A stretch of 62,382 nt of DNA, the filler included, from Basidiobolus ranarum (lineage: Eukaryota): NCBI GenBank assembly GCA_040143965.1. It is 18 parts of 18 records of this genome, joined end to end, with 100 filler letters (N's around TTAATTAATTAA, not from the genome) between each part and the next. Parts side by side here need not be neighbours in the genome. Positions count along the whole stretch, not along the records: positions 1 to 3,379 come from JASJQH010002528.1; 17 more parts are not named here. One strand, 5' to 3'. Below are positions 1 to 62,382 of the stretch, one piece after another. Every line of letters begins with the position of its first letter. Within the stretch, counting starts at the first letter, position 1. A program made the position numbers and the translations under genes. The notes beneath the pieces are model-generated. The model was not told the DNA's origin. It searched no databases and was given only the letters and a program-made list of their open reading frames with translations.

Positions 1-296
1 TGGGCCTCAATCAAAGTTAGGCAAAGTAGTCAAAATCTTGATTAATTCTCAATACATCCATACTCAAAGATATCCATTGAGAGCTCTAGACTTAAGACAC
101 TATGAATAAAGCTTTCATTATCTTTTGAATGTGCAATAATGTCTAAAAGTACTTTTCTTAAACATACCACATAAGTAAAATAAACTGTTTCCAAAATGGT
201 AAATAACATCATGCCAGATAGTACCCAATCATGCCAATTTGTGCTGGCACACTTTTTAGCTGGCCTGATCTGGCTCAATAAAATGGAACAAGTCTA
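1..296. mobile_element. End of hAT-like DNA transposon (terminus ATGGAACAAGTCTA = reverse complement of TAGACTTGTTCCAT)
   Basis: The same 14-bp terminus occurs at 13954-13967 and 30170-30183. TAG-starting TIRs are common in hAT elements; superfamily assignment is inference. Confidence 0.5.
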
Positions 297-438
297 AAAT
301 ACCACCAAGAAACTGCCATCACACCATCAAAATCCCTGGCAGAATGCAAGCCACCAATATTGTGATGGTTCTCTGATGGTTTTGCTATTTTGGAGGGTGG
401 ATCCAATCCAGATCTAATTGATTTTATTTTTGTTAGGG
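297..438. mobile_element. Terminal fragment of non-autonomous DNA transposon with CCCTAAC-type TIR
   Basis: Aligns with 18020-18160 and, reversed, with 51767-51910. Ends ...ATTTTATTTTTGTTAGGG. Confidence 0.7.
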
Positions 439-1617
439 CATTTGACTCAGTGGTAGAGATCAGCTGTAGAGAAAGCTTCAGTAATTGACTTCCAAGTCCT
501 TCACTCTGCTGGTAAGGGCCCTCTTTATTGACAGTATAGCCAGAATTCTCCATCCTAAATTCTCCTCCTGTTTGTACTCAATACCAAATGGGGTGGTACA
601 ATGTTCTGTGCAAGGCTCTCTGCTTGTTGTAATATTCCTCAATGATTTTCCCTAGCTGTCTCCAGGATCCTTGCTTACTTTATTTGCTGATGCTATTAGA
701 GTTTCTACTTCTCAGTCTCAGCAGGATACTGTAAGTATTCAGAGGTGTCTATCTGAACATAACTTGGAGCTATCCATTGCCAAAACAATTTCACTTGGTT
801 GTAATATTTCCTTGTATGATTCTGAGATTCCTCAAATGTATCATGCAACCTATCTTGGCTTACTATTCACTCAAACTGGCATTGATGTGAGGAAACACCT
901 GTCAATTAGAATTGCCTTGGCCAAACAGGCTGTTTATAAGTTGCTTGCAGTTACACCTCCCAAAACATTTTATCATGGATGGCAAAGACTTCTCAAGCAG
1001 TTTGTGATACCTGTTCTAGAATATGGAGTACATCTGCTCCCACTCAACTAGAGGGACTATTCCAATCTTGATAGATTCATCAGCTACTACCTCAGGCTGC
1101 TGATGCCTGACTTGCCTGAGACTCTCTACTGAGGGCTAGATTTTTACTCCAACTGAATGACTGCAAAAATCCACTGGTCAAGAAGTGGCTAGCAACACCT
1201 TCTTTAAATTCACTATCATGCTGGAAACTGATACAAGATGATCCTCTTGTTTCTGAACTAGCTTTACAACTGCATCAAACAAAACAGCCCAAAATTGTTG
1301 CTATAGACTTCCAGCTGGATCTTTGGAAGCAATACCTTTCCTCCAAGACACCTTTTTTGATCCACATAATTCCAGGTTTTTGTCCTATTGTCCATTTGGT
1401 TTGTACTGAATATCTTTCTTTCTGCTGACCACCTGTACCCCTTAACACTGTATTTACATCCTCAGAACTGGATTACATTGGTCATCTAGTTAAGTATGTA
1501 TATGATCCAGTTTTGGCACAATATCTTAAAAGATTGATGTCATGATTGTCACTTTGTTTAGATTAGTATATAAACTAAATAAAGTCCACACCACCTGGCA
1601 CTTTTCATCTCCCCTAA
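438..1617 (+). mobile_element. Degenerate non-LTR retrotransposon (LINE): RT domain and 3' end with telomere-like tail
   Basis: Translated remnants AFDSV.RDQL*RKL, GVVQ..VQGS, LFADA (YADD box), LELSIAKT, YLG and PVLEYG match LINE RT subdomains 3-7 and thumb. Stops and frameshifts present. Ends AATAAAG-hairpin-TTTTCATCTCCCCTAA. Confidence 0.85.
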
Positions 1618-6329: not shown

Positions 6330-6620
6330 CCCTAATAGAAATTTGAGGATTGTTATTGTAGGAAAACCATCACAATTTTAATCCATTTTGGATTGACCAT
6401 TTACTTACCATCATAAAATTGTCAAGTTAGATTTGATTTTAATTAATTTTTTCAGTGTCAGGCATGAAATTTCAAGATCTTGCAAAATAGTTGCACATAA
6501 TTGGCTGCAATCTCAGAGAACTATGGATCAATGCATGTGTGAAAAACATAACTCAAATTTAACATATTTACCACTTGAATGCTAATTTGTCACCTTTGAA
6601 ATCCCTAGTTTCTTTGATAT
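6330..6620. mobile_element. Terminal fragment of CCCTAAC-TIR DNA transposon (second end type)
   Basis: Starts CCCTAATAGAAATTTGAGG. Aligns with 44753-44952 and, reversed, with 18161-18449. Confidence 0.75.
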
Positions 6621-6649
6621 ATATTCTCCTGAATACTCTTGTAGAGTTC

Positions 6650-6858
6650 TTAGGGGGGATGAAAAGCACCAGGTGGTGTGGACTTTATTTAGCTTAAATA
6701 CTATTCTAAACATAGTGACAATCAAGACATCAATCTTTTAAGATATTGTGACAATACTGGATCATATCCATACTTAACCTGATGACCAATATAATCAAGT
6801 TCAGAGGATGTAAATATAGTGTTAAGGGCAAAGGTGGTAAGCAGAAAGGAAGGTACTC
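6650..6858 (-). mobile_element. 3' end of the LINE family at 438-1617, capped by TTAGGGGGG
   Basis: Reverse complement aligns with about 1410-1617. Confidence 0.88.
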
Positions 6859-8827: not shown

Positions 8828-8865
8828 TTAAGGGGATGAAAAGCACCAAGTGGTGTGAACTATGT
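8828..8865 (-). mobile_element. Short, degraded LINE 3' tail fragment
   Basis: TTAAGGGGATGAAAAGCACCAAGTGGTGTGAACT matches 6650-6685. Confidence 0.7.
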
Positions 8866-13913: not shown

Positions 13914-13967
13914 CTAGCAGGCTGGATCGAGTGGCACAATCTGACCTGGTCCGATGGAACAAGTCTA
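13914..13967. mobile_element. hAT-like transposon terminus
   Basis: Reverse complement aligns with 30170-30225. Confidence 0.6.
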
Positions 13968-14205
13968 TTGTTTTTGAAGATAATCCAAGTTGTATTTCTC
14001 TAGCTAAAAACCCTACATTTCATGCTAGAATAAAACATATAGATATTAAGCATCAATTTGTTTGAAGAGTAATAGAAAATGATATAATTGAACTTGTCTA
14101 TTGCCTCACTGAACAACTGATAGCTGATATCTTAACCAAACCTTTAGCTAAAGCTCAATTTGAATTATTCAGATATAAGTTAGGTTTAAGAAAAATACAA
14201 AATGA
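13968..14205 (+). mobile_element. Ty1/copia RNase H C-terminal remnant
   Basis: EDNPSCISLAKNPTFHARIKHIDIKHQFV...IADILTKPLAKAQF. Confidence 0.85.
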
Positions 14206-14809
14206 TTTTCAAAGACCACACCACTATCATTTGATCCTTGGAGCTTATGGGTGGTAGTTCCATTGTAGCTACTTCCCCAGCTCTGCCATGACACTACTAA
14301 AGGGCTGCATTGGTTGAATAAGAAGCTGTGTAGTGCAGCTTGTTGCATCTTGAGCTCCTATATGTTCAAAGGCTTCTTCTTGCAAGAACCAACATCCAAG
14401 ATGTTTAACAACTTTACCATGGTACTGGCTAACTTTGAAATTCTAAGTATTTCCTGATGTGGTTGGTTGTGATTGGTTCTGGACAGCATTAGTAATTTTT
14501 TCAACCACTTGTTCCTTATATATAGCCACTACATTAGGCTCCAACTGAATCTCTATAGGGTGATACTGTTGCAGATTAAGCCATGCAGTGTAGCATTTAG
14601 ATGGGTAGGATGCATTAGGCAGCTGCTAGTTTAATCATATTCTGGTTCAATTCTCACAATCAAAAATATGTGTTTATTGCAAATATCATAGATTTAGCAA
14701 TTTTGTCACTTATATCAAATTTACTAGTTTACCAACACTTCTCCACATTACCTCAATACTCATTCATGCTTTACAGGCATCACAGAGACTCTTTATTCAA
14801 GCATAGACA

Positions 14810-15440
14810 CTCAGCTTAAAATATGAAAAATGCTTGGGAAACACTTGAGAGACTATAGAAGACTCAAAGTCTATGGAGAACTGTTACTGGTGTGGAAACT
14901 CAACCAGATGACACCAAGCCAAAAGAGATAGGTGACTTGAAGAGATGGGAGGAGAAAGCCCTTTCCACCATTAAGCTGAATCTTGATGATGCTTGACTCA
15001 CTCTTGTACTAAATGTAGAATCATCTGCTGAGGTTTGGGCCACCTTGATGACCCTATGCAAACTAAAGGAATTGCTAACCATATATGTCTACTAAGGAAA
15101 CTATAGAGCTTCCTCAAGATACCAGACTCTGACTAATGGACCTAGCATACCAACAAACTCAAAGTCTTTATGCCAAAGCTGACTGCTGTAAGAAATACCA
15201 AGGCAACACTTAAGTGAACAAATATATTATACAATCATATATTACCAAGCCACTCTGTGATTAACACCACTATGGAAAATCCTGATGATATGCTACTTAC
15301 TGAGACTCATGTTATCTCTAAGCTATTTCATGTAAAGAAGCTGCTGGTACATAGGACTAAATATAACAACAAGAGTGTTTTCCATGCAAAAAAACACTTT
15401 ATTGAAGTAAGGAACTCTGGCAAGGAGATCAAAATTTTAT
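14810..15440 (+). mobile_element. Degenerate copia-like gag remnant
   Basis: LWRTVTGVE...WEEKALSTIKLNL...SSAEVWATL resembles the copia gag (UBN2) N-terminus; many stops. Confidence 0.55.
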
Positions 15441-15448
15441 GTTGCAGA

Positions 15449-17290
15449 TGATAAAAGTGTTTAGGGGTTATAGAAGTGTTTTCACAAGATTTGGGTTTGT
15501 TCATTAGACACTTGGGTTTTACTAAATTAAAAATGTCCTATTTATAGGTTACTATGAAATGGGACTATTGGACATGCTTACATTATAACAAACATGGCAG
15601 TTAAAAATAGGTGAAAATTTGAGGTGATTTGAAGATGTTTTGAGAAATTAATTAAAATTGATAAAAGTGAGCTAATTGCTATTTCTAGCAATTAGACCAA
15701 TAAACAAATGTATTTGAATGGCAGAATTGGGTGCTGAATAATTAGAATATATATATAAACCAACTGCTAAATAATGAGTTGCTATTTACCTAATTTGAAC
15801 ATTCACACTCAACTAATTATTTTGTATTTCTCTTAAACCTAATTTTTACCTTAATAAATCAAATTGTGCTTTGGTTCAAGGTGTGGTTGAGATGAAAGCA
15901 ATCATTTCTTCAGTAGGGTGATGGACAAGTTCAGTTATACTGTTCTCTATTGCTTCTCTAACAAAATTATATCTAATATCTATTTGTTTTGTTGTTGCAT
16001 GAAATGTAAGGTTTTTAGCTTATGAAATACAACTTTAATTATCTTCATATACAGTACTAGCATGTTTTTGCATGTATCCTGAGTCTGTATGTAATTTCTT
16101 TAACCACATAGCTTCTTGCGTAGTAGCAGAGGCTGCCATATACTTTGCTTCAAAAGTGGAAAGTTCTATGATTGTTTCTTCTTACTATTCCATGTTATGG
16201 CTTCATTACCATAGAGAAAAGTGTACCCCAGTGGTTGAACTTCTATTTTCAGGGTTTCTTCACCAGTCTGCATCACTGTAGCCATCATAATATATGCATC
16301 AGGAGTGGCAGAGTATTCATGACCTAGATCTACAGTTACTCTCAAATTCCTGAATATTTGTTTTCCTGTAGTATTATGCTCTGATCTGGGATTTTTGAGA
16401 TATCAGCTGACAGTTCCCACTGTTACAGCACTATCTGCATATTCTCAGCCATTGTGTATATTAAACTGCTCACCGTGCAATGATAAGGGAATTCCTGGCT
16501 TTGATTTGAGTCATTTTGGGCCAAAATGGGATACAATTTGATTAATTTCACATTGGGATCCATTGGAGTTGATACAGGCTTACTATTCTCCATGTTGACA
16601 CACTTTATGACATCTAGGATTTATCCAGACTGATACAGTATAATTTTTTGATTTGGTTTTATTTCTCTTGATATGTATTCCAGGAAAAAAACTTCATTTA
16701 CCCATATCAGCTATTGGCTATTGGTTTGATAAGCCACTTTTTATCTGAGTAAGTGCTGTTAGATTATTTGGGGCTGAGTTCAAGTCATCCACCTATGGTG
16801 CCAAAATAAGGATTCTATTTCTGTTTGTTTTGATGTAAATACTGTGATCTGCAGTGCATTTTTGGAATTCTACTGATTTCAAATAGATATCTATCTTGTT
16901 GTACCAGGCCCTCTGTGCTTGCTTGTGTCCATATAGCAATTTTGTAGTTTACAGACCATATCAGGATGTTCAGGGTGAACAAATTCATCTTGTTGCTCCA
17001 TAGAGATCTCTTCTTTTAGATTTCCATTCAGAAAGGCTGTTTCTACATCCATTTGATATAAAGCATTGCTAAGGATGGCTTAGAGGGCCAGGATGGATTT
17101 AATGGAGCTATACCTAGCTACTGGAGCAAACATTCATTAAAATCAACTCCTGGAGTTTGGGAAAAACCTGTTGAAACAAATCTTGCCCTGTACCCTTCTT
17201 TGGTTCCATCTGCTTGGTTTTTGACTTTGTAAACCCATTTGCAGCCTATGGGCTTTCTCCCTGATAGTAGCGGACTCAAAACCCATGTTT
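15449..17290 (-). mobile_element. Ty1/copia 3' part: degenerate RT-RNase H plus 3' LTR family B (15449-15801)
   Basis: Reverse-strand CKWVYKVK, YQMDVETAFLNG and RNase H remnants. LTR aligns with 33738-34089. Confidence 0.9.
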
Positions 17291-17934: not shown

Positions 17935-18449
17935 TTAGGTTTTTGCAAAAATTGCCTGAAATTAAATAATGCATGCCAAATATGAGGATCTATATTTTAA
18001 CATGTATGAATACCATCAAAATACCATCAAGAAACTGCCTTCACACCATCAAAATCCCTGGCAGAATGCAAGCCACCAGTATTGTGATGGCTCTCTGATG
18101 GTATTGCAATCCAGAAGGGTGGATCCAATCTGGATCAAATCATTTTTATTTTTGTCAGGGATGAAAGAAACTAGGGATTTCAAAGGTAATAAATTAGCAT
18201 TCAAGCGGTAAATGTGTAAAATTGGAGTTTTGTTTTTTGCACATGTGTTGATCCATTGTCTTCTAGGATTGTAGCCAATCCTGTGCAACTACTTTGTGAA
18301 ATCTTCAAATTACAATTCTGAAACTGAAACAATTGATTTAAATCAAATCTGACTTGACAGTTTTATGATGGTAATTGAATGGTCAATCCAACATGGAGTA
18401 AACTTGTGATGGTCTTCTTACAATAACAATCCTCAAATTTCTGTTAGGG
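17935..18449. mobile_element. Two nested CCCTAAC-TIR DNA transposon ends (at 18160 and 18449)
   Basis: 17935-18160 matches 51767-51993 reversed; 18161-18449 matches 6330-6620 reversed. Confidence 0.75.
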
Positions 18450-21299: not shown

Positions 21300-24240
21300 A
21301 TCGTTATACCATTTGTCATTTGTCTGTAGTCTTTAGCGATTCTATACCACTTCGTAAACTCATTATCCTTATAGTGTCCTCCCAAACCTAACGTTTTGTA
21401 TGACCATACAGTTTGTCACATATCAGCAGTGTATACCTTTTCGTAGACTTTGCTATCAGTGTTTCCCATAGTCTCTAGCACTTTATAAACTCTTCTTTAA
21501 GCGTTATCCGTATTGCTTGGTTCTTGGCACCATGCTTTTGTCTTTTGTCAATAGGTATTTGCATTTTGTAGCATCTGCATTAAATGTTTACCACCGCTTT
21601 GTAGACTCTACTTTAAGTGCTTTCCAAATCCATCGTTTCTTGGCACCATACACTTTGTCACTTATCGGTGGTTTTTAGCATTACATAAACTCTTCCCCAT
21701 ACCCGTCATTTTTTGGCACCCTACCATCTGTCTTTGTCAGTAGTCTTTAGCACTTCGTACACCCAACCTTAAACATATTCTATACCCATCGTTTCCTGGC
21801 ACCGTACTCTTTCTCTTTTTCAGCAGTCTTTAGCGCTTGGTAGACTATCCCTTTGGTGTTTCCCATCAACATATTCTTCGTCATTTATTAGTAGTCCTTG
21901 GGACTTAATAAACTAACTCTACTTTAAGAATTTCGTAATCGCTATATCTCGACACTACACCCTTCGTCACTTGTCAGTTGTATTTGCACTTGATAAAACG
22001 TGCTTTAAGTGTTTTCCGTGCCGGTTGTTTCTTGGCACTATACCCTTCGTCATTTTCAGTAGTCTTTAGCACCTCTTTACCACTTTATAGGCTTTCCTTT
22101 AAGTGTTTTCCATACCCGTTGTTCTTGGCACCATACTCGTCAACATTTGTCAGTGGTCTTTAACTCCCCGTACATTCTCCTTTTAGTATTTCTCATACCG
22201 CTTGTTTCTTGGCTCATACCCTTTGTCATTTGTCGGTAGTCTTTAGCACTTTGTAGACTCTCCTTTAACATCACTGATACCCGAAATCTCTTGACACCAT
22301 ACGCTTAGTTATATGTCATTAGTCTTTAGAGCTTTCTTGAACTCTCCTTTAAGTGATTTCCATACCTGCTGTTTACTTTTACCGTACTCTTTGTCATTTC
22401 TCAGCAGTCTTTGGCATTTGACTCTGCGGGAAGTGATTTCAACACCACTCTTTTCCTGACACCTTACCCTTCGTCCTTTATGAGTTTTCATAGTGGTTGG
22501 ACACTTCTTGGACTCTCATTTAAGTGTTTCCCATACCCAGCATTTCTTGGCATCATATCCTTCATAATTTTTCAGTAGTCTCATGCACTCCGTAGCCTCT
22601 CTTTAAAGTACTTCCCATATCGCTCGTTTCTTGGATTCATACCTTATGATATTTTTCAGTAGTCTCTAGCACTGCGTAAGCCCTCTTTTAAGTGTTTTCC
22701 ATACTGGTCAATTGTTATTACCATACCCTTTGTCACTTGTCAGTAATCTTTAGCACTTTGTTGACTCTCTTGTGAGTGTTTCGCACACCTGCCATTTTTT
22801 GGCGCCATAAGTCAATAATATCTGGATCAAGTCTCGGCTATACCTAATAGTATCACTTGTCTCGTAGCATGTTGCTAGAAAGCCAAGAAATTCTTGTTTG
22901 GTATCTTCTGCATCAATAGCGTAGCAGTTGCGGTACCCGCACTTCAAATCAAACCCTGTTGGTCATCTACCTTCGAACTCAATTGTGTATTTGGATCGTC
23001 GCATTCCAATATCTGCATTCTTTGATGACACTTCGACATATTTTTTGGTTATTGTGCATATTGAACTCTTCTTTAATTGTTTGCCACACCCGTTATTCCT
23101 GTCACCATGCTCATTATCAACTGTCATTAGTCTTTAGCAATTCTTTACCACCTCGTTAACTCATTCCCCTTTAAGTGCCCTCCCAAACCCAACGTTTGTA
23201 TGACCATACAGTTTGTCACATATCAGCAGTGTATAACTATTTGTAGACTTCGCTATCAGTGTTTCCTAAACCTGTCATTTCTTGACACCGTACTCATCAT
23301 CGCTTATCAGTAGTGTCTAGCATTTTATAAACTCTCCTTTAAGTGTTTGCCATACCGGACGTTTGTTATCACCATACCCTTTGTCTTTTGTCAGCAGACT
23401 TACCATACCCTTTGTCACTGGTCAGCAGTCTTTACCACTTCGTAGACTCTTCTTTAAGTGTTTCCTATACCCTTCATTGTTGTCACCATACTCTCAATAA
23501 TTTTTTAGGAGTCTTTAGCATTCCATAAACTCTTCTTGAAGTGTTTCCTATACCGCTTAGTTTTTGGCACCATATTTTCTCTTTTTTCAATAGGTTTTCG
23601 CACTTTGTAGCATCTGTTTTAAATGTTTCCCCGCGCTTTGTGGACTCTACTGTAAGGGCTTTCCATACCCATCGTTTCTTGGCACCATACTCTTTGTCAC
23701 TTATCGGTGGTTTGTAGAACTACATAAACTCTTTTTTAAGTGATTTTCATACTCACTGTTTATTGTCAACAAACCCTTTGTCATTTGTCAGTGGTCTTTA
23801 GCTCTTCGTAGACTGTTCTTCAAACGTTTCCCATATCGCTCGTTTCTCGTCACCATACCCTTCATCATTTGTCAGTGGTCGTTAACACTGTATAAACTTT
23901 TGTTTAAGTGCTTCCCATACCAGTGGTTTCTTGGCACCATACGCTTCATAATTTGTCAGTAGTCTTTATCTACATACCTGCCGTTTCTTGGCACCATTCC
24001 CTTTGGCATTTATCAGTGGTCTTTAGCTGCTCGTAGACTCTACTTTAAGTGTTTCCATACTTGTCATTTCCTGGCACCATACCCTTCATCGCTTGTCAGT
24101 AGCCTTCAGCACTGTCTAAACACTCTTTCAAATGTTTTCTGTACGAGTTGTTTTATTATTACCGTACCCTTCGTCGTTTTCAGTAGTCTTTAGCACATCT
24201 TTACCACTTTATTGGCTTTCCTTTAAATGTTTCCCATACC
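21300..24240. repeat. Degenerate ~84-bp satellite (about 30 units) with ~1.8-2.1 kb higher-order duplication
   Basis: Hand consensus CCATACCCTTCGTCATTTGTCAGTAGTCTTTAGCACTTCGTAGACTCTCCTTTAAGTGTTTCCCATACCCGTCGTTTCTTGGCA. Interrupted by non-repeat DNA at about 22810-23080. Confidence 0.92.
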
Positions 24241-31283: not shown

Positions 31284-32895
31284 TTGTTTTGATGTAAATA
31301 CTGTGATCTGCTGTGCATTTTTGGAATTCCAGAGATTCCAAATAGGTATCTATCTTGTTGTACCATGCCCTGGGTGCTTGCTTGAGTCCATAGAGCAATT
31401 TTTGCAGTTTACAGACCATATCAGGATGTTTTGGGTCAACAAATCCATCTGGTTGCTCCATATAGATCTCGTCTTCTAGATTTCCATTTAGAAAGGCTGT
31501 TTTTACATCCATTTGATGTAGATCAAGATTATGGACGGCTGAGAGTGCCAGGATTGATCTAATGGAGCTAAACTTAGCTACTGGAGCAAAAGTTTCATTA
31601 AAATCAACTCCTGGAGTCTGGGAATAGCCTTTTGCAACTAATCTTGCTTTGTACCTTTCTATGGTTCCATCAGCTTGGTTTTTGACTTTGTAGACCCATT
31701 TGCAACCTATTGGCTTTCTCCCTGATGGAAGAGGACTTAAAACCCATGTTTTATTGTCCTGAAGTGCAGACAACTCATCTGACATGGCTCTTGCAAAAAT
31801 ATTTGATTCTGGATGCTCCAGAGCTTGATCTAGAGTCTGTGGCTTATCTCAAAATGCTGCATAAGCATATACGTCATCATTGGAAGTGTTCCACCAGTTT
31901 CCTGGCTTGTTTCTCCTTCTGCATGATCTTCTGGGTCCTGAATCATCCTCTGATGTAATTAGGACTTGAATTTTGATTGAATAGGGCTCAGATACAGCTG
32001 AAATTTATCAGACACTTCCTGTATAGTGCTGATTGTGTTCTATGGATCAAGAACTGTGATTTGAGGTGAAAAATTAGCTTTTTCATCAAAATCACATCTC
32101 TGCACTTGATGAACTTCTGATTTCCAGTATCAAACAATCTGTAGGCCTTAGAATCTTCAAAGTAACCACAAAATATACATTTTCTGCTTATGGTTCCAAT
32201 TAAAGCATTTTTGAGTGGGAATAAGGCAATATGCTGTGCAACCAAAGATCCTGAGATGATGCACACTTGGTTTTGATCCATATAGGTCTTCTAATGGAGT
32301 AGAATTTTGAAGCAATCTTGTTATGCATCTGTTTTTAATATAGACTGCAGTGGAGACAGATTCAGCCCAATATTAGTAATCTGACTTTTGATAATGTAAC
32401 GTTGATCTAGCCTGTTCCACTATGGTCCTATTAGCACATTGTGCAACTCCATTTTGCTTTGGAATATAAGGTACAGTAGTTTGTTGCTTAATTCCTTGTT
32501 TTGAGCAAAAACTAGCAAGGTCTTTAGAGTAGTATTTTCCACCAATATCACCCCTGAGTACCTTTATTTTTTGTGCTGATTCTTTCTCTACAATTGCTTT
32601 GTAGTGCTTGAAAGTAGCTAAGGCTGCATAGTTTAACTTGGGAAAGAATACTCAGGTATATCACGTTTTGACATCAATAAAGGTCACAAAGTACCTTTTC
32701 ACACCTAGCAAGATGTGTTTCATGGGCCCACATCTATCAGAATGAATCAGGGTAAAACTGTGAGTGGATTTGATCCCTCCAGAGCTTGTTTTCCATATAT
32801 GCAACCTTCACATAGATCCAATTTAGTGATATTTCCAATTTCCAAGCCTGAAACAAGCTGACTTTGGATCATGTGGGTCAGTTTTTGTTCCCCAA
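31284..32895 (-). mobile_element. Ty1/copia pol remnant (integrase to RT)
   Basis: RT ORF KPIGCKWVYKVK...YKARLVAKGYSQTPGVDFNETFAPV...HQMDVKTAFLNG...LYGLKQAPRAW; degenerate integrase upstream. Confidence 0.95.
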
Positions 32896-33522
32896 TGTTG
32901 AAATTAGGTAAATAGCAACTCATTATTTAGAAGTTAGTTTATTCATATTCTGGTTATTTAGTATCCAATTATGTCATTCAAAAACGTGTGCTTATTGCTC
33001 TAATTGATGGAAATATCAATTAGATCCCTTTTACCAATTTTCACTATTTTTTCTAAACTTCTCCAAATCACCTCAAACTTTCACCCACGCTTAGCAGGCT
33101 CATTTATTATGATCTAAGCAAGTCAAATGGTCCAATTTCATAGTAAACTATAAATAGGACATATTCAATTCAGTAAAACTTAAGTGTCTAATTCACAAAT
33201 CCAAATCTTGTCCCAAACACTTCCATATCCCCTAAGCACTCAATTCTGTTGTTCAAAAACGTGTGTTTATTGCTCTAATTGATAGAAATATTAGTTGGAT
33301 CACTTTTACCAATTTTCACTTTTTTCTAAAAACATCTCCAAATCACCTCAAATTTTCACCCATGCTTAGCAGGCATGTTTGTTACAATCTAAGCACATCC
33401 AATAGTCCTATTTTATAGTAAACTATAAATAGGACATATTCAATTCACCAAAACTTAAGGGTCTAATTCACAAATCCAAATCTTGTCCAAAACACTTCCA
33501 AATCCCCTAAACACTTTTATTA
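32896..33522 (+). mobile_element. Head-to-tail tandem family B LTRs (about 1.8 copies)
   Basis: TGTTGAAATTAGGTAAATAGC at 32896; block about 32960-33240 is repeated at about 33235-33522. Confidence 0.85.
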
Positions 33523-33737
33523 AAACTCCATTTTAGTAAGTATAAGCTGAGAAGTCTTTACTTCTTTTGCAAAGTGATACTATGGATCCTCCAGGCATTG
33601 TCTGGATTACATAGAAATAGCCCACTCCTCCCAAGCACTAAGCCATACTAGCAGCACTCATATGATTAAGCTTATACATCATCCTGGTTGTCTCCAATGG
33701 AGATCTCGAAGGGGCTTGCAAATTGACAAATTAAATG

Positions 33738-34654
33738 TGTGGAAATTAGGTAAATAGCAGCTCATTACTAAATATTGAGCTTATTCAAATTTTGATTTTT
33801 TAGCACTAAACTTTGCTGTTCCAAATTGTGTGTTTGTTGTTCAAATTGATAGAAAAATTATTTAGATCACCCTTACCAATTTTCCCTATTTTCTGCAATC
33901 TTCTCCACATCACCTCAAATTTTCACCCATGCTCATCAGGCATGCTAATTATGATCTAAACACATCTAACAGTTCTCTTACATAGTAAGCTGTTAATAAG
34001 ACATTTGCAATTCAATTGTATTCAAGTATATAATTCACAAATCCAAATATTGTCCAAAGCACTTCAAAATCCCCTAAATACTATTATCAGGTTATGAGCC
34101 CCAAGCTAGCTGTTGAAGGAATACCTACCAGTACTATTACCAACATTTTTGTAACCACAGAGAAGTTTAAAGGTGAAGACTTTCACCTTTGGAAGTTCAA
34201 AATACTAAGGTGCCAGGAGACAAAACCTCTGTTGATTTGTTACAGGTTGAGAAATAGAGCCAAAGAGTCTACCAGTAGCTATCCTGGTCTTGAACAAGAT
34301 GCAGAGGAAAGAACTCTTTGCACTTTGTGTAAATCTCTGAGACTCACAATTGAGATACAAACACTCAGCCAAACATGTCCAAACCACTTTGGAAACACTT
34401 GAGGGACTATAAGAGACTAAAGGTCTGGCTAATTGGCTATCTTTTGGGCAAACATTGTTCTCCATTCAGATAAATTCTGATAATCCTATGCTTAATCATA
34501 TGAACTGGACAAAAACAATGGCAGATCAGCTGACATCCAATGGAGCACCTCTAAGTGAATGTCATTTAGTCATGGCACTACTTGGGAGCCTGCCAGACAA
34601 GTTTGGGAACCTCATAATTGCCCTAGAATCAAGATCAAAGCCATTGACAATGGA
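33738..34654 (+). mobile_element. Ty1/copia 5' end: LTR family B (33738-34089), PBS (34090-34101), degenerate gag
   Basis: TG...CA LTR, GGTTATGAGCCC, EKFKGEDFHLWKFK, LLGSLPDKFGNLIIALE. Confidence 0.9.
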
Positions 34655-43673: not shown

Positions 43674-43716
43674 TTAGGGGGAGAGAATTCTCCAAGTGGT
43701 GTAGTCTTCATTTAGA
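43674..43716 (-). mobile_element. Highly degraded LINE 3' tail copy
   Basis: TTAGGGGGAGAGAATTCTCCAAGTGGTGTAGTCTTCATTTAG resembles TTAGGGGGGATGAAAAGCACCAGATGGTGTAGACTTTATTTAG (62157). Confidence 0.55.
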
Positions 43717-44752: not shown

Positions 44753-44952
44753 CCCTAACAGAAATTTGAGGATTGTTATCGTAGGAAAACCGTCACAATT
44801 TTAATCCATTTGGGATTGACCGTTTACTTACTGTCATAAAATCGTCAAGTTAGATTTGATTTTAATCAATTTTTTCAGTTTCAGGAGTGAAATTTCAAGA
44901 TCTCGCAAAATAGTTGCGAATGATTGGCTAAAATCTCAGAGAACTATGGATC
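44753..44952. mobile_element. CCCTAAC-TIR DNA transposon end, CpG-retaining (younger) copy
   Basis: Aligns with 6330-6530. Confidence 0.8.
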
Positions 44953-45061
44953 TTAGGGTTAGGGGGGAGACAGTCACCCAAAGGTGAAATCTTTATTTCA
45001 AACAAAACAAAGAAGCCATAACTACTTTTGTAGTTTCTTAACTAATGTATGGAGATCAGGA
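44953..45061 (-). mobile_element. 3' end of second telomere-tailed retroelement family
   Basis: TTAGGGTTAGGGGGGAGACAGTCACCCAAAGGTGAAATCTTTATT; reverse complement aligns with 52094-52200. Confidence 0.75.
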
Positions 45062-47504
45062 NNNNNNNNNNNNNNNNNNNNNNNNNNNNNNNNNNNNNNN
45101 NNNNNTTAATTAATTAANNNNNNNNNNNNNNNNNNNNNNNNNNNNNNNNNNNNNNNNNNNNCATAAGATCACTTGGAGCTTACATTTATATTATCTATAG
45201 GAACGGATGCACCACATTTAGAAAGATTTGCCATATTTTGTATATTTACGGATGCGTGAATACGAAGTGGGTATAGATGTGGGAATAAATGGGGCAAGGA
45301 TTAGATTCCCAAAGAAAATTTTACAGTGCTGAGGGCATTCACCGCGAATATTCATATAAAATCTTCGTTAGGTATAACAACAGGGGGAAAGGGTTTTTTG
45401 AAACTTGTTGATAAATGCAGTCAGGTGCCATTATGCAAAAAATCTCTAGAAAATCAACAAATTTTAAAATCCAATGCAATTCATGGGATAGAATGAACTG
45501 AGCTTACCCCAAGATTAATGTCAATGAAATGTTTTCTTTTGTCATGACTTATTATTGCTACGGTTGAAGAGTAAAGCCCATACTAGTCTAACTATTCAAA
45601 GACTATCTAAGGACCAAGGTCTTGGCACTGAATCCTAGTAATTATTTATTATGGTCGAAGTCAATTACGCTATGATTCCTGTTTGTTCCGATTTCAATTT
45701 CTTCATATGTTTTCCATTAAAAGATACCATAGAGAAATAGAATGCCTGAAATCGGCACAATAGCTATGGCAACAAAGACGCAGTCAAAAGACATAGAGAT
45801 AATCGTCCTGCATATTCAGTAGAAAATACTTGGCAACTGTTACTTCATCAGATGGTAGATGGTTCAGCTCAATTGGACTTAATATGGAAACTTACTTTAG
45901 ATGCAAACAGGTTAGGCTGCATTCGTTAAAGAAGGTGGCGTTAATATTCTACAGGGATGTTCTGAATACATAACAATGCGAAGCTGAAAGTGCCTCGTTT
46001 CTCCATATTCCGAGTGATGTAATTAATTCTGTCACTCAGAATGTCAACATAACTACCATCTTAATCATTGGCTAACACAAACTATACAGCGAACTAATCA
46101 GGAGCAACTTTCTGCACAGTGGCCAATAAAATTCAGATAAAAGACTTAATTGGCATCTTGATTAGCATGTTCATGTTAGAACATCGTTAGACGGCAAAGG
46201 TCAAAAATTAGCATTTGTATCTGCAAAGCCCCTAGTATAACTCGTCACTATACATGTTTCTGATATGCTCATTAAGTGTTTAACAATAGATAGTGTAGCT
46301 CAAGGTTTGCCGTCATTGACTCTAGTGTATCTTTGTTACTGGAAGAGCTGTAGATTCGTTTCAAAAATATTCATTAAATCAAAGCGGGTATATGTGATTC
46401 GGTTCCTATATTTTTCGCCCCTATTAACTCGTAAAGCATGGCGACGAATGGCAGTACGTTAGTGGACATTCAGAAATACTACTTTATCATATTTAATATA
46501 CTTCAAAAGTACGAGTCTGGCTTGGTCATTCTGCACCAAGGGCAGCACTAGACAGAAGGTGCAGATGATATGTATGCAGCGTGCGTTATACTAGCTATCA
46601 TTCACTCATTATCGGCTTGAATACAGCCCTACTAGACATAGGAATGGCGTATCAACTTGAATGGGAAGCATTGTCTAAGTAAGCTGACTACAACTCTTGC
46701 GTCGAGGTGTTGCAACAATACTCCTCAAGTTCTTTCATACGTCATAGATACCTTGGGCCCTCTCATCCTCTAGCCACATGAGTGCTTGTCTGGTGTTTAA
46801 ACCTTTTTGGCCTCGCAATAAACTGTGGCATATAATTCGACTGCACATTTTGAATCACAATCCTTTCGTTAGATTAGGAAATCTTTTGTTTACAAAATCA
46901 TGGACGGTCTTTGTAGACTTTCAAACGTTTGATTGGCTCTTTGTCATCTTAATTTTAGCCTCTTAGTCCAAAAAAGGACAACCTACAGAAACAGCAGTAG
47001 GACGTATATTTGTGCAATCTTTGACAATGTCCATTTTGGGCGATATTCAAACATCTGGAGAGCAAGTAAATAATAAACAATAATTCATTATTTTTTGTCA
47101 TTGCTGTTGTAGTCAAAATGGCATCCATTGATCGCATATTTTATTCGTGCATGTCTTCATTTTATCTGAAGCAACCAACTGCTTGCTGGCTCATTCTGAT
47201 CGTTAACTCCCTGTGCTTGTCTCAACCACTCCCTTTTCTCTCTTATTCATCACAATCCTTTTCTCGTCCTATATTGGTTTGATATTTTATTTCATTCTAC
47301 TCTTACTACTTCCAAACTAGAGTCACTAGTGGCCCTTACCTTGCTTTAGAGTTACTTGTTTTCTCAATAATCTATAGTGATTCCTCTTTTATTTATCACT
47401 GTGGCCTGCATTTGGTTAAAGGAAGTGATCTTTTTTATCGACCAAGTATAGATCAGCAAAGCACCCATAAACACTCTGAAACACCACAATTTGAAGGAAC
47501 AAAC

Positions 47505-48528
47505 ATGAAAATAGGGCAAGAAGCTAGTAAAGCGAGAAACAGTCACTATGTTTTGTGGAATTATATAGACCGAAAATTAATTGTCAACGATCCAAAGTTG
47601 CCGACACTCGAACAGGTGCTATCAAGAAAAACCTCTCCACCAGTATGCTTATATAATTACTATCTATTTCTACGTGACACTTATCGCTCAGTAGAGAATC
47701 TCGACTTTTGGTTGGATGTGGTCGCTCACGAAAATCTATGTAAACTTTATTGCAAAGAATTACTCTCCAACTTGAACGATTCTCATAGCCGTGCTCACTC
47801 ATTTACCCCAGTCGAGAATCTTGGTACCTTAAATAAGCTTAGTCTCAAAGAAGTATCAGATGAACTCAGGTTTAGTACAATAAGTGGAGTAAGTACTGAA
47901 AAGAGATCTAGCTCAAACGCTATATCAACTACTGATTTAGAGGCAACGAACTTGACGACTCAAGCGTCACATATGGAGGTCTCTATGGATAATAAAATCG
48001 ATTCTAGTGGGCATTACACGAAGCGATACGCTGATTCTGAACTACCATTGAGACAAACTAACAACAAGATTCAACGAGATGATTTGAGACAATCTGCAGA
48101 AAAAATATATTACAAATATATTGTATCTGGTGCCGAGAAGGAACTCGTACTACCTGAGATGATTCGCCAGCGCATCAGCCAAATGGTAGAGAATGACCAC
48201 CGTGATGATCCTGAAGTTTTTCTAGAAGCTAAACTCTTTGTGTTCGACTATATGGCTCAAGACTCCTTCCCAAGATTCATTCGGGCTAGAGCATATTCCA
48301 ATCTTGTTACCCTCCATGCAATGTTTCGACTGGTATTAGGCCTGTTTATATTGTTCTTCGGCTTTACTGTTGAGTTTACACTCATCTTCTTGGACTATCA
48401 ACCAAAGCTGGCACGGCTTTGGGTAAGTAAACTGATGATTTGTCCGAAATGCCCTAAATCAGACTAGAAGTGACTAATATGTTGATGTCTAACTCATTTT
48501 AGGGCTTCATACCTATCTGGCTTGGGAC
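47505..48528 (+). CDS. RAX1: RGS-domain membrane protein, Rax1-like (intron 48423-48502; 3'-truncated; start uncertain)
   Basis: LPTLEQVLSRKTSPPVCLYNYYLFLRD...ENLDFWLDV, SAEKIYYKYIVSGAEKEL, RDDPEVF, FPRF, then transmembrane helices. Confidence 0.82.
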
Positions 48529-48628: not shown

Positions 48629-51560
48629 CTGGCTTTGATTTGAGTCATTTTGGGCCAAATTGGATGAATTTTTTGTTTTATTTCACATTTGGATCCATTG
48701 GTGTTGATACAGACTTGCTATTCTCCAAGTTGAAGTGTTTTGGGATGTCTGGGATGCATCTAGACTGATTCAGGATGATTTTTAGATTAGATTTATCTCT
48801 CTTGATTTGGATTCCAAGAAAGTAACTTTATTCACCTCTATCATTCATCTGAAATTAGTTTGATAAGTGGTTTTTTGTCTGATTAAGTGATTCTTGAGCA
48901 TTTCTGGCTATGATCAAGTCATCCACATTTAGTGTCAAGATAAGGATCCTATTTTTGGTTGTTTTGTCTCAAATACTGTGATCTGCTGTGCATTTTTGGA
49001 ATTCCAATGATTGCAATTAGGTATCTATCTTGTTATACTATACCCGGGGAGCTTGCTTAAGTCCATAGAGCAATTTTTGCAGCTGACAGACCATATCAGG
49101 ATGTTTTTGGTCTACAAATGCATCTGGTTGCTCCATATAGATCTCTTTTCTATATTTCTATTCAGTAAGGCTGTTTTTACATCCATTTGATGAAAATCAA
49201 GGTTACAGTTGGCTGAGAGTGCCAGGATTGTCTAAAGAAGTTAAAGCTAGCTACTGGAGCAAAAGTTTCATTAAAATTAAACGCTAGAGTCTGGGAATAA
49301 CCTTTTGCAACTATTCTTGCTTTGTACCTTTCTATGATTCCATCAGCTTGGTTTTAGAATTTGTAGACCCATTGGCAACCTTTTGGCTTTCTCCCTAATG
49401 GTAGAGGACTTAAAGCCCAAGTTTTATTGTCCTGAAGTGAAGAAAACCCATCAGACATTGCTTTTTACATAATTGTGTTTGCGGACACTCCAAATCTTGA
49501 TATAGAGTCAGTGGCTCAAAACAGAACACTGTATAAGCATTCACATTGTTATTGGAAGTGTTCCACCAGTGTTCTGGCTTATTTCTCCTTCTGTATGCTA
49601 TTCTGGTCTTGAATCATCCTCAAATGTAATTGGCACTAGAATTTCAGTTGAATATGGCTGAGATTCAGCTGGAATCATGTCAGACACCATCTGAATAGTG
49701 TTGATTGTGTTTGCTGGATCAAGAACTGTGATTTGAGGTGAAAAATTTGCTTTATGATCAAAAATCAAATCTCTGTACTTAATTAACTTATGATTTTTAA
49801 CATCAAGCTGTCTGTAGGCCTTAGATCCAGCACAGTAACCAAGAAATATGCATTTTGGCTTTTGGGCTCCAATTTAGAGCATTTTTGAGCTGGAATCAGG
49901 CAATATGCTGTGCAATCAAAGAATCTGAGATGCGTCACACTTGGTTTTGATCCATAGAGGGTTTCAGATTGCGTGGAATTTTGTTGTAATCTTAAATGGG
50001 CATCTATTTCTGAAAGAGACTGCACTTGAGACAGTTTCAGCCCAATATTGGTAATCTTACATTTGATACTGTAACATTGTTTTTGCCATCTCCATGATGG
50101 TCCTATTTGCATGTTCTGCAACTCTATTTTGCTGCAGGGTATAAGGTAGGGCAGTTTGTTGCTCAATTCCATGCTTAGAACAAAAATTAGCAAAGTCTTT
50201 AAAGCAGTATTCTCCACCATAATCACTCCCAAGTGCCCTTTTTGTTTGTGCTGATTCATTTTCTACCTTTACTTCTTAGTGCTTCAACATGTCTAAAGCT
50301 TCATATTTTGATTTGAGAAAGATACCAAATATATGATGTTTTGTCATCAAGAATAGGTCATAAAGTACCTTTATCCACCTAGTGAGGCATTTTTTGTGGG
50401 CCCACATGGTCAGAATGAATCAGGGCTAAGTTCTGAGTGACCAAATATCTCCAGACTTAACAATAGCTGTCTGTGATGTTTTCCATATATGCAACCTTTG
50501 TGCATATCCAATTTAGTCATATTTTCAATTTCTAAGCCTGAAACAAGCAGAATTCAGATCATTTGGGTCATTTTCTGTTCCCCAATGTGGCCTAATACTC
50601 TATACCACATTTGATAGCTTATTTCAACAGCTTTGGCCAAGTTCTCATGCTCAGAATGGAATTTGTTGATATCTAGCTGGTATAAGTTTTAAGTTTTGAT
50701 CCTGGTAGCTAATTTGGTATTATTCTGCTCTGTGATAGTGCATCCAGCCTTGCTGAATATGAAATTGGTTACTTGATTTATGGCTATGCTTACTGAGAAT
50801 AGAATCTTTGCTATATTTGGTACATAGAGCTCATCATCCAAAATTGCCAGCAGTTTTGCTGAATTTTGGTCTATATTGAAAAATACTGTACTCATACCAA
50901 CTGCATCTAGTGCATAGTCAGCACTTAGTAGACTTTCCTTGTTTGGTTTGGTTTTAAGTCAGAAAGCCAATCTTTCTTGTTTAAGATAGCTCCAAAGCTC
51001 CTGATTCAATGTACCACATTTCTTAGTCTTCTTTAGTGGTTACTGATAGGGCAGACACAAATAGATGATCCCTCTCAGTGCTTACTCAATTTATTTGTTC
51101 CGTTTTAGCTGTTTGCAAAAATCCTTTTTCTACAATGTTTGATTAAATGGCCTGGTTTCCTGCAATACTTGCAGATGATTGATTTCCTAATAGGGGCACT
51201 ATTATTGCAGCCAGTTGGATGTTTTACAGCTCCAAAAATGCTTGTTCTGCATTATTTTGCTGAGAACTAGATCTGCTTGATTCATCACTCACAACCTACA
51301 CCAACATATTTGTTATCAATTGCTCTGATCTTGATTTCAGGGTGATTATATAGATTCCTAAACTCGTCTGGCAGGCTCCCTAGTAGTGTCATGACCAAGT
51401 CATGCTCTTATAGAGGTGCTTTAATGGGTGAGGGCTGGTCTGCCAGAGTTTTCATCCAATTTATATGATGAGGCATAGTATTATCAGGATTTATCTGAAT
51501 TGAGATTAATTTTTGTCAGAGATATAGCATATTAGCCAGACTTTTAGTCTCACATAGTCC
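48629..51560 (-). mobile_element. Degenerate Ty1/copia internal region (gag - zinc knuckle - protease - integrase - RT)
   Basis: CKYCRKPGHLIKHC knuckle at about 51130-51175, integrase and RT remnants in copia order, many stops. Confidence 0.92.
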
Positions 51561-51766
51561 ATCATGGGATACACTCTAGTGATCCACTCTCTACTTTGGA
51601 AGGCATTAACATGCCAGAAGCTTACTCAGTTGTTGAAGACACATTAATAAATCTACCAGACATGTTCCTTTCTAGCAATAGTGCAAGCAAAGATATTATA
51701 ACCCCTCCCAATTATGTAGTAAAACAACATTTGAGTAAAGTTCAATACTAACCACTTTGACAGCTA

Positions 51767-51993
51767 CCCTAACCAAAATAAAATTGATTTGATCCGGATT
51801 GGATCCACCCTCCAAAATAGCAAAACTGTCAGAGCACTGTTGCAGTATTTTTGGCCTGCATTTTGCCAGGGATTTTGATGGTGTGACAGCGGTTTCTTGA
51901 CAGTATCTTAATGGTATTCATACATGTTAAAATATTGATGCTCAAATTAGGCATGCATTATTCAAGATCCAGCAATTTTTGCAAAAAATAATT
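51767..51993. mobile_element. CCCTAAC-TIR DNA transposon end
   Basis: TA|CCCTAACCAAAATAAAATTG...; reverse match to 297-438 and 17935-18160. Confidence 0.75.
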
Positions 51994-52093: not shown

Positions 52094-52212
52094 AGATCTC
52101 CCTACATTAGATAAGAAACTACAAAAGTAGTTATGGCTTCTTTGTTTTGTTTGAAATAAAGATTTCACCTTTTGGTGACTGTCTCCCCCCCTAACCCTAA
52201 CCCTGACCTTAA
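52094..52212 (+). mobile_element. 3' end of second telomere-tailed retroelement family with (CCCTAA)n tail
   Basis: AATAAAG-ATT-TCACCTTTTGGTGA-CTGTCT-CCCCCCCTAACCCTAACCCTGACCTTAA. Confidence 0.78.
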
Positions 52213-55557: not shown

Positions 55558-57354
55558 ATAGTAAACTATAAATAGGACATATTCAATTCAATAAAACTTA
55601 AGTGTCTAATTCACAAATCCAAATCTTGTCCAAAACACTTCCAAATCCCCTAAACACTTTTATCAATTTCAGGGTTGATGTTCTCTATGTTGAAGTGTTT
55701 TAGGATGTCTGAAATGTATATAGACTGATTCAGCATGATTTTCTGATAAGGTTTATCTCTCTTGATTTGGATTCCAAGGAACAAACTTAATTTACCCATA
55801 TCAGTCATCTGAGATTAGTTTGAAAAGCTTTTTTCATCTGCTCAAATGCTTGTGGATCATTTGTGGCAATGCTCAAGTCATCCACATGGAGTGCCAAGAT
55901 AAGAATCCTACTTCTGGTTGTTTTAATCTAAATACTGTGATCTGCTGCAAAATTTTGCAAATCCAGTAATTCTAATTATGGATATATCTTTTTGTACCAT
56001 GCCTCAGGTACTTGCTTGAGTCCCTATGGCAGTTTTGCAGTTTACAGACCTTATCAGGGTGTTTTGGGTCAACAAGTCCATCAGGCTGCTCCATATAAAT
56101 CTCTTCTTTTAGATTTCCATTCAGAAAGGCTGTTTTTATATCCATGGGATATAAATCAAGATTATGCATGGCTGAGAGTGCCAGCCTTTTTCTGATAGAG
56201 CCAAACTTAGCCACAGTAATAAATATTTCATTAAAATCAACTCCTGGAGTCTGGGAATAACCTTTCGCAACTATTCTTGCTTTGTACCTTTCACTGGTTC
56301 CATCAGCTTAGTTGTAGACTATATATACCTGTTGGCAATCTGTTGGCTTTCTCCCTGATAGTAGAGGACTTGAAATCCGTGCTTTATCACCCCAAAGTGA
56401 AGAAAACTCATCAGACATAAATTTTTCCCATAAATATGATTTTGACACCTTAGAGCCTGATCTAGAGTCTGTAGCTTGTCACAGAAAGCTGCATAAGCCT
56501 GTACATCATCATTAGAAGTGTTCCACCAGCTCCCTGGCTTATTTCTCCTTCTAGACAATCTTCTAGGTCCTAAATCAGTCACTGTTGTGATTGCAATTTT
56601 GGTTGAAATTGGCCCAGATACATCAGGAATTTTGTCAGACTCTTCCTGATTAGTGCTGATTGTGTTTTCTGGATTACAAACTTTGATTTGAGGTGAAAAA
56701 TTTGCTCTTTCATCAAAAATCACATCTCTGCACTTAATTAACTTCTGATTTGTGATATCAAGCAGTCTGTAGGCCTTAAAACCATCACAGTAACCAAGAA
56801 ATATGCTTTTATTACCGTTTGGGTCCAATCAACAGCAATGTTGAGCTGGAATTGGGCAATATACTCTGCATCCAAAGATCCTGAAAAGATCCATGAATGT
56901 TTTTGATCCTTTTAGGGCTTCAAATGGAATAGAATCTTGTAGCAATCTTCTTAGACAATTATCTTTGAAGTAGACTGCAGTGTAGACATTTAACATTGTT
57001 TTTGCCATCTCCAATATGGCCTATTAGCACATTGTGCAGCTACTTTTTGCTGTGGAATGTATGGAACATCATTAATTTCATGTTTAAAGCATAAACCAAC
57101 AAAGTTTTTAGAGCAGTATACTTCACCATTATCACTCCTTAGTACCCTTATTTGTTGTGCCAATTCTTTCTTTACCATTGCTTTATAGAACTTGGACATT
57201 GCTAAGGCTTCTAATTTTGATTTGAGAAAGAATACCCAAGTATATCTTTTTTTGTCATCAATATTAGTGATGAAGTACCTTTTGCCATCTAGGGAGACAC
57301 TTTTCAGGGGGCCACATGGTCAGAATAAATAAGGGCAAAATTCTGAGTTGATTT
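55558..57354 (-). mobile_element. Degenerate copia integrase-RT, interrupted on the left by a plus-strand family B LTR end (55558-55665)
   Basis: RVLRSDNGEVY, FLGYCDGFKAYRL, RDVIFDE, MDIKTAFLNG. Confidence 0.9.
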
Positions 57355-62156: not shown

Positions 62157-62298
62157 TTAGGGGGGGATGAAAAGCACCAGATGGTGTAGACTTTATTTAG
62201 CTTAAATACTAATCAAAACAAAGTGACAATCAAGACATCAATCTTTTGAGATATTGTGACATTACTGGATCATATCCATACTTAACCTGATGACCAAT
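62157..62298 (-). mobile_element. LINE 3' end copy capped by TTAGGGGGGG
   Basis: Aligns with 6650-6790. Confidence 0.88.
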
Positions 62299-62382
62299 GT
62301 GTTGTGCACCAACATTCAATGTTGTTTAACTTATGCCACATCTATACAACTTGCATAAATATCTGTTTAGTTTATCATTATT
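62299..62382 (+). mobile_element. Probable third LTR family start (TGTTGTGCACCAACA)
   Basis: The same ~34-bp start occurs at 44718-44752, in both cases interrupting another repeat. Confidence 0.5.

Follow-up and report, generated by a model that had tools for sequence, protein, structure and literature searches.

A Basidiobolus LINE family with a predicted stem-loop and a short CCCTAA-repeat tail in place of poly(A)

We analyzed a 62,382-nucleotide stretch of the genome of the fungus Basidiobolus ranarum (assembly GCA_040143965.1; hereafter the window), which consists of 18 contigs, every one 3362-3379 bp long, with N44-TTAATTAATTAA-N44 spacers between them. Seven 3' ends of long interspersed nuclear elements (LINEs) in this window were found to stop at a C-rich tail, C(4-7)T(T)AA(CCCTAA)0-3, in a constant register with TAA at the flank. 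The elements form a family without long terminal repeats (non-LTR) that is restricted to Basidiobolus and has at least two subfamilies in the window. In our reading, it appears to be a LINE whose fixed tail is unusual, not a proven telomere-primed element. The explanation that we favor, with confidence that reaches about the halfway mark, is a LINE of the “stringent” kind with an apurinic/apyrimidinic endonuclease (APE), an element-encoded stem-loop and a (CCCTAA)n tail.

The window is repeat-rich, with a G+C content of 36.7%. An original prediction, made from the sequence alone, had described five of the ends and assigned the LINE to an early-diverging fungus. This assignment was borne out by relatives in Basidiobolus meristosporus and by an RGS-domain open reading frame (ORF) at 47283-48467, which, across 78% of its length, shares 100% identity with a Basidiobolus ranarum protein (NCBI naming); the matches that followed, at 57-74%, were proteins of B. 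ranarum and of B. meristosporus.

Seven LINE ends and their 3' module

The copies are as follows.

439..1536, plus strand: copy 1, subfamily 1; 5'-truncated ORF2 remnant with many stops and frameshifts (tblastn, translations)
1537..1617, plus strand: 3' untranslated region (UTR) and tail module of copy 1 (sequence, alignment of seven tails, fold), with AATAAAG at 1578-1584, a CACC-ACCT-GGCA stem-loop at 1589-1600, a pyrimidine spacer at 1601-1610 and CCCCTAA at 1611-1617
6650..6858, minus strand: copy 2, subfamily 1; 88.6% identical to 1408-1618 and continuing off the contig end; tail C6TAA
62157..62300, minus strand: copy 3, subfamily 1; 144 nt, 5' truncation at 62300; tail C7TAA
8828..8860, minus strand: copy 4, tail-only; stem-loop, spacer and CCCCTTAA; upstream sequence unrelated
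43674..43715, minus strand: copy 5, tail-only; AAATGAAG, variant stem-loop and C5TAA
52094..52212, plus strand: copy 6, subfamily 2; ORF end at 52095-52130, AATAAAG, a TCACC-TTTT-GGTGA stem-loop and C7TAA at 52185-52194
44953..45061, minus strand: copy 7, subfamily 2; ORF end at 45060-45022, tail C6TAA-CCCTAA; abuts a 5'-truncated copy of family C (see below)

By tblastn, all five family proteins matched 455-1536 (+) of copy 1, with 48-54% identity over the reverse transcriptase (RT) part (455-1129) and 29-42% over the C-terminal part from 1132. Copy 1 begins within RT, at the (K/R)AFDSV motif, and runs to the C-terminus. Truncation at the 5' side was variable while the 3' end was fixed, copy 1 being cut in RT and copy 3 at its 144 nt. 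BLAST showed that copies 2 and 3 share 94.9% identity with each other and 88.6% with copy 1, and that copies 6 and 7 are 96% identical. The ORFs of subfamily 2 end in a stop codon after DLPTLDKKLQK (52094-52212) and PDLHTLVKKLQK (44953-45061), which resemble the end of the relative P0002.

The tails carry one unit in each of five copies (a variant in one of these), and two and about four in the others, after C-runs of 4-7. CCCTAA units terminate six of the seven copies; the host telomere repeat is assumed here to be TTAGGG. The tail of copy 6 reads C7TAA-CCCTAA-CCCTGA-CCTTAA. Even among near-identical copies the length differed, with C6 in copy 2 and C7 in copy 3, and with about four units in copy 6 and two in copy 7. 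The presence of two and about four tandem CCCTAA-like units in subfamily 2 indicates that the tail is a variable short tandem repeat. The bases directly after the seven tails were G, G, T, G, C, G and T (or C), and no poly(A) or A-run followed the tail at any of the seven ends. Homology ended at the tail in all seven cases, beyond which the flanks were mutually unrelated. The original prediction was accurate in its description of the module of copy 1, i.e., AATAAAG, a hairpin, a pyrimidine stretch and CCCCTAA. All five ends that it listed do terminate in C(4-7)T(T)AA, lack poly(A) and have flanks that are unrelated, but the one at 8828 is CCCCTTAA and not the CCCTAA that it had reported. The observation proved stronger than first described, in that copies 6 and 7 lie beyond those five and add a sister subfamily with multiple units.

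The AATAAAG, CACC-N4-GGTG and spacer elements are common to both subfamilies, the UTRs of which are otherwise dissimilar. In subfamily 2, the UTR consists of AATAAAG, a TCACC-N4-GGTGA stem-loop, the spacer and the C-run. A CACC-N4-GGTG stem was predicted in 5 of 7 copies, from both subfamilies; copies 1 and 5 fold otherwise. The stem-loop, of 4-5 bp, had predicted energies of -4.3 to -9.7 kcal/mol and z-scores of -0.5 to -2.9, values at which most copies are indistinguishable from shuffles.

The tail is part of the LINE: in five copies it continues directly from the ORF end and 3' UTR, and no LTR, terminal inverted repeat (TIR) or inverted partner of the LINE ends was found. We considered whether the C-run/TAA end might instead be the terminus of a separate element (TIR, LTR or Helitron-like) or an assembly artefact. 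The copies at 8828 and 43674 do share only the last 32-40 nt, and another CCCCTAA of the window does fall within a copia-type LTR. However, whereas homology stops at the LINE ends, in that LTR family it passes the hexamer (3 of 5 copies read ACACTTTTAT), and an assembler would not be misled by anything as short as a 6-mer. Together with the contiguity described above, these observations make a separate origin of the tail barely credible, and the original view that it is not a TIR or LTR end holds.

Both strands of the window contain 14 sites of the form C>=4 T(1-2) AA, seven of which are the LINE tails; the other seven lie in the copia-type LTR (five), in the LINE ORF (one, at 1438) and in unique sequence (one, at 28232). 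CCCTAA occurs 38 times, compared to 24.65 expected, a count that was reached by 2 of 100 shuffles. For copies 4 (8828) and 5 (43674), the common sequence was limited to the last ~32-40 nt. Each is single-copy in the window, with unrelated upstream sequence and an undefined 5' end. In sharing just the module, these tail-only copies are candidates for SINE (short interspersed nuclear element) partners like those of stringent LINEs (PMC4176376); copy 4 is either a SINE-like partner or an extreme truncation. Finally, a metagenome scan with a 24-letter tail pattern gave no matches, and one by protein alignment gave 28 loci that were 24-59% identical over the best segment, with CCCTAACCCTAA in none of the 28, a result that is uninformative on the family.

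The encoded protein and its predicted endonuclease

To identify relatives, we used the copy 1 remnant, translated with X at two stops, as a query, which found P0002 at an E value of 1.7e-60. A search with P0002 then gave relatives of 821-923 residues at 50-64% identity, as well as two B. meristosporus proteins. The full-length relatives are 47-64% identical to each other, and the named members are all from Basidiobolus. The family is narrow, with five close representatives in a library clustered at 50% identity and the next proteins at ~30% identity. Pfam RVT_1 matched the relatives at E values of 1e-22 to 1e-27, and the best matches in a PDB sequence search were LINE-1 ORF2p (E 1.4e-21), followed by R2; this search found the RT and not an endonuclease.

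As every copy in the window lacks the 5' half, the APE domain rests on these relatives. Exo_endo_phos_2 matched P0008 with 27.5 bits, against a Pfam cut-off of 27.4, and was the sole N-terminal match above cut-off; Exo_endo_phos matched P0003 at E 7.4e-5, under the family cut-off. When the N-termini of the family were aligned by hhalign to the APE domains of nine other LINE ORF2 proteins, the probability was 96.4% (E 1.2e-9), and the alignment paired YLPPS, GDLNxxH, VDWI and SDH with the canonical APE motifs. In an alignment of 34 sequences, G-D-x-N, the D of VDWI and the H of SDH were invariant. AlphaFold modeled the endonuclease domain of P0194, a 251-residue relative, from 34 sequences with a predicted local distance difference test (pLDDT) score of 85.2, while a model of a whole 923-residue relative from five sequences was unusable (pLDDT 39.5). 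The P0194 model had 186 PDB matches at E<=0.001 in Foldseek, led by AP endonucleases (APE1) and ExoIII, and these include the LINE-1 endonuclease 7n8s_A with a template modeling (TM) score of 0.61 and a root-mean-square deviation (rmsd) of 3.9. Alignment and modeling thus predict that the relatives encode an N-terminal APE-type endonuclease with conserved catalytic residues, and the endonuclease-less, Athena/Coprina-like element envisaged in the original prediction is therefore not supported for the family.

On the other side of RT, no endonuclease or zinc-finger domain was detected by Pfam in the ~230 residues of the relatives. The sole match was Carn_acyltransf in P0004, which is below cut-off (E 0.025, 13.6 bits). 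Alignment of five sequences in this region showed two separate invariant Cys residues and no CCHC or Cys/His cluster, in agreement with the earlier statement that no CCHC motif follows RT.

We also observed that, in the B. meristosporus gene models P0006 and P0007, the C-terminal ~170 residues of the LINE are strung together two or three times, always from the same start point, which implies tandem arrays of the LINE 3' part in the B. meristosporus genome.

Flanking families, genomic setting and other features of the window

Two short families, B and C, were found next to LINE copies and elsewhere.

289..438, plus strand: family B, 5'-truncated; its end, TTTTTGTTAGGG, adjoins without a gap the truncated 5' end of LINE copy 1 (alignment, BLAST, motif scan)
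17940-18160, plus strand: family B; ends TGTCAGGG
51767-51993, minus strand: family B
18161..18449, plus strand: family C, ~290 nt; ends TTTCTGTTAGGG, with a B end directly before it (alignment, BLAST, motif scan)
6330-6618, minus strand: family C; begins 30 nt past the tail of LINE copy 2
44753-44952, minus strand: family C, 5'-truncated; directly past the tail of LINE copy 7

The three family B copies end in TTTTTGT(T/C)AGGG or TTTTGGTTAGGG and have three different flanks, and the three family C copies end in TTTCT(G/A)TTAGGG, also with differing flanks. Both families (three copies each) therefore terminate in TGTTAGGG, which corresponds to the LINE tail in reverse complement. They are truncated on the side opposite to the hexamer, as retroelement copies are, and may be non-autonomous retroelements with a G-strand tail. 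Exact abutments were observed between a B end and the 5'-truncated LINE at 438, between a B end and C at 18160, and between a LINE tail and 5'-truncated C at 44953. At 6649, a LINE tail is followed by a 30-nt gap and then C, and a diverged C-like stretch follows the tail at 62157. At 438 there is microhomology, with the TTAGGG of the B end overlapping ACTAAGG-like codons of the LINE. These junctions fit both end-to-end template jumping of RT between RNAs with such 3' ends and repeated insertion at older tails.

Other readings of the hexamer and of the ends were considered. The copia-type LTR that contains CCCCTAA (33235, 33510, 34077, 55653 and 15461) and extends from TGTTG to ACA was rejected as another hexamer-ended family, as its homology passes the hexamer. 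TIR, Helitron and piggyBac/Harbinger readings of the ends were rejected because the ends have neither an inverted partner nor a fixed flanking base, and because 438 is an internal RT position. Separately, copia-type elements with RVT_2 and a retroviral SH3-like domain were seen at 31284-34654, 48629-51993, 55558-58920 and 13914-17290; their LTR runs from TGTTGAAATTAGG to CCCCTAAACA, and a 275-bp partial LTR is present as a tandem duplicate at 32966-33515.

The surroundings of the LINE copies did not resemble a telomere. Telomere repeats continued in none of the seven 3' flanks, and no telomere array longer than the LINE tails was present within the window. Same-orientation repeats beyond the tail were absent from all seven 3' flanks and from both visible 5' flanks, although short-read contigs would under-represent copies in arrays. 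The hexamer at the 5' junction of copy 1 (433-438) is the end of family B and is wrongly oriented for a telomere cap. The telomere-primed LINE of the original prediction was not supported by these flanks. Located 60 bp downstream of copy 1 is a solo LTR (family E, 1679-1894 among others), which extends from TGTTGAAATTAGC to TTTAACA, and beyond it, on the opposite strand and ~350 bp from copy 1, lies a housekeeping gene, for an NAD-epimerase; copy 1 is therefore not in a repeat array. Family E was also tried as a tail-related sequence and rejected, being an LTR that is unrelated to the tail.

Other features of the window are listed here for completeness. The contig at 24341-27712 is, over its entire length, a single minus-strand open frame with nonribosomal peptide synthetase (NRPS) modules (PP-binding, Condensation and AMP-binding), has a G+C content of 44.6% compared to ~37% elsewhere, and is identical in its first and last 111 bp; it could be horizontally acquired or a contaminant, with an assembler overlap at its ends. 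A partial U6 small nuclear RNA (snRNA) gene, with a T-run at its end, is located at a contig start (6959-7057; Rfam RF00026, 55.5 bits). A degenerate tandem array of ~3 kb at 21313-24240 is composed of ~84-bp units (also scored as 224 bp) that are 65-77% alike, and contains no ORF of at least 80 codons. A perfect 35-bp tandem repeat with 4.2 copies is present at a contig end (3234-3379).

Origin of the tail and relation to known elements

In the explanation that we favor, a 3' module of the transcript would replace poly(A), consisting of AATAAAG, the CACC-N4-GGTG stem-loop, a 7-10 nt pyrimidine spacer, the C-run and one to about four CCCTAA units. The element would itself encode the tail, which would be copied from the RNA. 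Ordinary interstitial DNA would be nicked by the endonuclease of the element, and RT, which may recognize the stem-loop and tail, would initiate on the terminal CCCUAA, presumably by target-primed reverse transcription. Slippage or variable initiation could then alter the number of C residues and units. A mechanism of this type has been described for L2-clade LINEs and the SINEs that accompany them (PMC4176376).

Several results weigh against this explanation. The stem-loop is short and without covariation. The evidence for an APE derives from relatives with 48-54% identity to the copy in the window, and the first Mg-binding Glu is replaced by Asp in all three sequences that cover this site. 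No target-site duplication (TSD) was found for copies 1 and 3, of which both ends are visible: the longest shared words were 5-7 nt and lay away from the junctions, and 17% of random pairs reach 7. When the locus of copy 3 (62000-62340) was read as one clean insertion into an LTR, the two flanking LTR-like segments were only ~65-70% alike. Because both loci are repeat mosaics, the missing TSD is weak evidence. Furthermore, the unit of the LINE tail is the exact canonical telomere C-strand hexamer, and there are four families with a terminal hexamer, two with CCCTAA and two with TTAGGG; an arbitrary microsatellite tail would not predict the hexamer at the termini of four families. Finally, 3 of the 7 LINE tails precede family C, which is entered at differing points, and this pattern suggests chains or targeting, not random insertion.

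The hexamer is shared in both orientations, and for this reason we kept two accounts in which the telomere repeat takes part in integration. In one of them, which we regard as unlikely, integration would be guided by the hexamer in the manner of TRAS/SART: the APE would nick at or near TTAGGG/CCCTAA-like sites, among them older elements' tails, the CCCUAA of the RNA would anneal to the nicked TTAGGG 3' end, and the tail would be partly or wholly shared with the target. Consistent with this are the exact head-to-tail abutments at hexamers (438, 18160 and 44953), the microhomology at 438 and the recurrence of family C after three LINE tails, and the coexistence of families that end in the C-strand and in the G-strand recalls the opposite orientations of TRAS and SART. 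However, the telomere repeat fails to continue in any of the seven 3' flanks, and the same-orientation CCCTAA expected of a duplicated target is missing from both visible 5' flanks. Moreover, SART1 has poly(A) and requires at least three repeats (PMC7265360), neither of which was seen in these copies.

The other account, that of the original prediction, is in our view very unlikely. It holds that CCCUAA primes without an endonuclease on telomeric G-overhangs or telomerase-seeded breaks, and that extension by RT heals or extends the ends and builds head-to-tail arrays. The tail does resemble a telomerase template, its units vary from one to four, TSDs were undetected, and the head-to-tail chains with 5'-truncated proximal elements are like MoTeR arrays; such a use of reverse-complement telomere repeats at the 3' end is described for endonuclease-minus Penelope-like elements (PLEs; PMC8557442). 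Against it stand the conservation of APE catalytic residues across members that are only 47-64% identical, the location of copy 1 next to a gene in a window without a telomere array, and the B and C hexamers, which are wrongly oriented for internalized telomere tracts. Telomerase-seeded ends would also have a random register, so that the constant TAA register is better explained by a tail copied from RNA. Lying between these two accounts in probability, and quite unlikely, is the idea that the LINE CCCUAA and the B/C UUAGGG ends are functional telomere mimics, which would pair with telomeric or break 3' ends or, in end-to-end template jumps, with each other's cDNA; the pairing would build the head-to-tail chains and might occasionally cap or heal chromosome ends.

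The favored explanation, a stringent-kind LINE, has precedents. Stringent LINEs (UnaL2 and ZfL2-1/2 of the L2 clade, as well as LINE/SINE pairs of CR1, RTE and Tad1) have a stem-loop and a short-repeat 3' tail (PMC4176376). As there, the Basidiobolus family combines a predicted APE with RT, has no poly(A) and carries a small predicted stem-loop before a variable tandem-repeat tail, and the short non-autonomous elements that share only the tail may have a counterpart in two single-copy tail-only candidates. Unlike in stringent LINEs, the Basidiobolus unit follows a C-run and is the canonical telomere C-strand hexamer, and the stem, with putative recognition, is just 4-5 bp; the host, moreover, is a fungus of zoopagomycete grade.

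TRAS1 and SART1 of Bombyx mori (R1 clade) are APE-type elements with opposite orientations relative to the telomere repeat. They have poly(A) and reside inside (TTAGG)n arrays, whereas the Basidiobolus copies have one to four units on the 3' side only, in ordinary flanks. Targeting by SART1 depends on the repeat sequence (PMC7265360). The fungal MoTeR, FoTeR and Cnl1 elements (CRE clade) lack poly(A), have a 3' junction with a run of TAACCC/CCCTAA, sometimes a single unit, and form 5'-truncated head-to-tail arrays (PMC12857005 and PMC7367193); in MoTeR arrays, the stable junctions hold a single TTAGGG (PMC7367193). In contrast to their restriction-like endonuclease (REL) C-terminal to RT, 5' variant repeats and telomeric location, the Basidiobolus family has a predicted N-terminal APE, no REL or CCHC motif and non-telomeric flanks. 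Athena and Coprina PLEs have a telomerase-related RT, hammerhead motifs and no endonuclease, while the Basidiobolus RT matches LINE ORF2, APE is predicted in relatives and Rfam detected no ribozyme in the window (U6 was its single match). The two groups are alike in the reverse-complement telomeric hexamer at the 3' end, seen here in six of seven copies if the host telomere is TTAGGG.

In nature, retrotransposition is connected to the maintenance of chromosome ends mainly through LINEs that carry telomere repeats. Those known from fungi (MoTeR, FoTeR and Cnl1) use a restriction-like endonuclease, and Athena and Coprina, which have reverse-complement tails, are endonuclease-less. Our search of the literature found no description of Basidiobolus LINE tails or of its telomere repeat, and we know of no counterpart of TRAS/SART, MoTeR or Athena in this lineage. 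RTETP, a Repbase clade name of possible relevance, was encountered only in lists of clades. With an APE-type LINE that has (CCCUAA)n at the end of its own RNA, an early-diverging fungus would have reached the same solution by a third and independent route, and the telomere-mimic reading, if true, would place this LINE beside TRAS/SART, MoTeR and Athena as their fungal counterpart of the APE type. The partner families with the complementary hexamer raise the interest of this system, in which the question of whether priming is guided by a short telomere-like tail is tractable. Should the tail serve only for recognition or as a slippage repeat, the family would still add a new case to the stringent-type LINEs and be of use in the annotation of Basidiobolus genomes.

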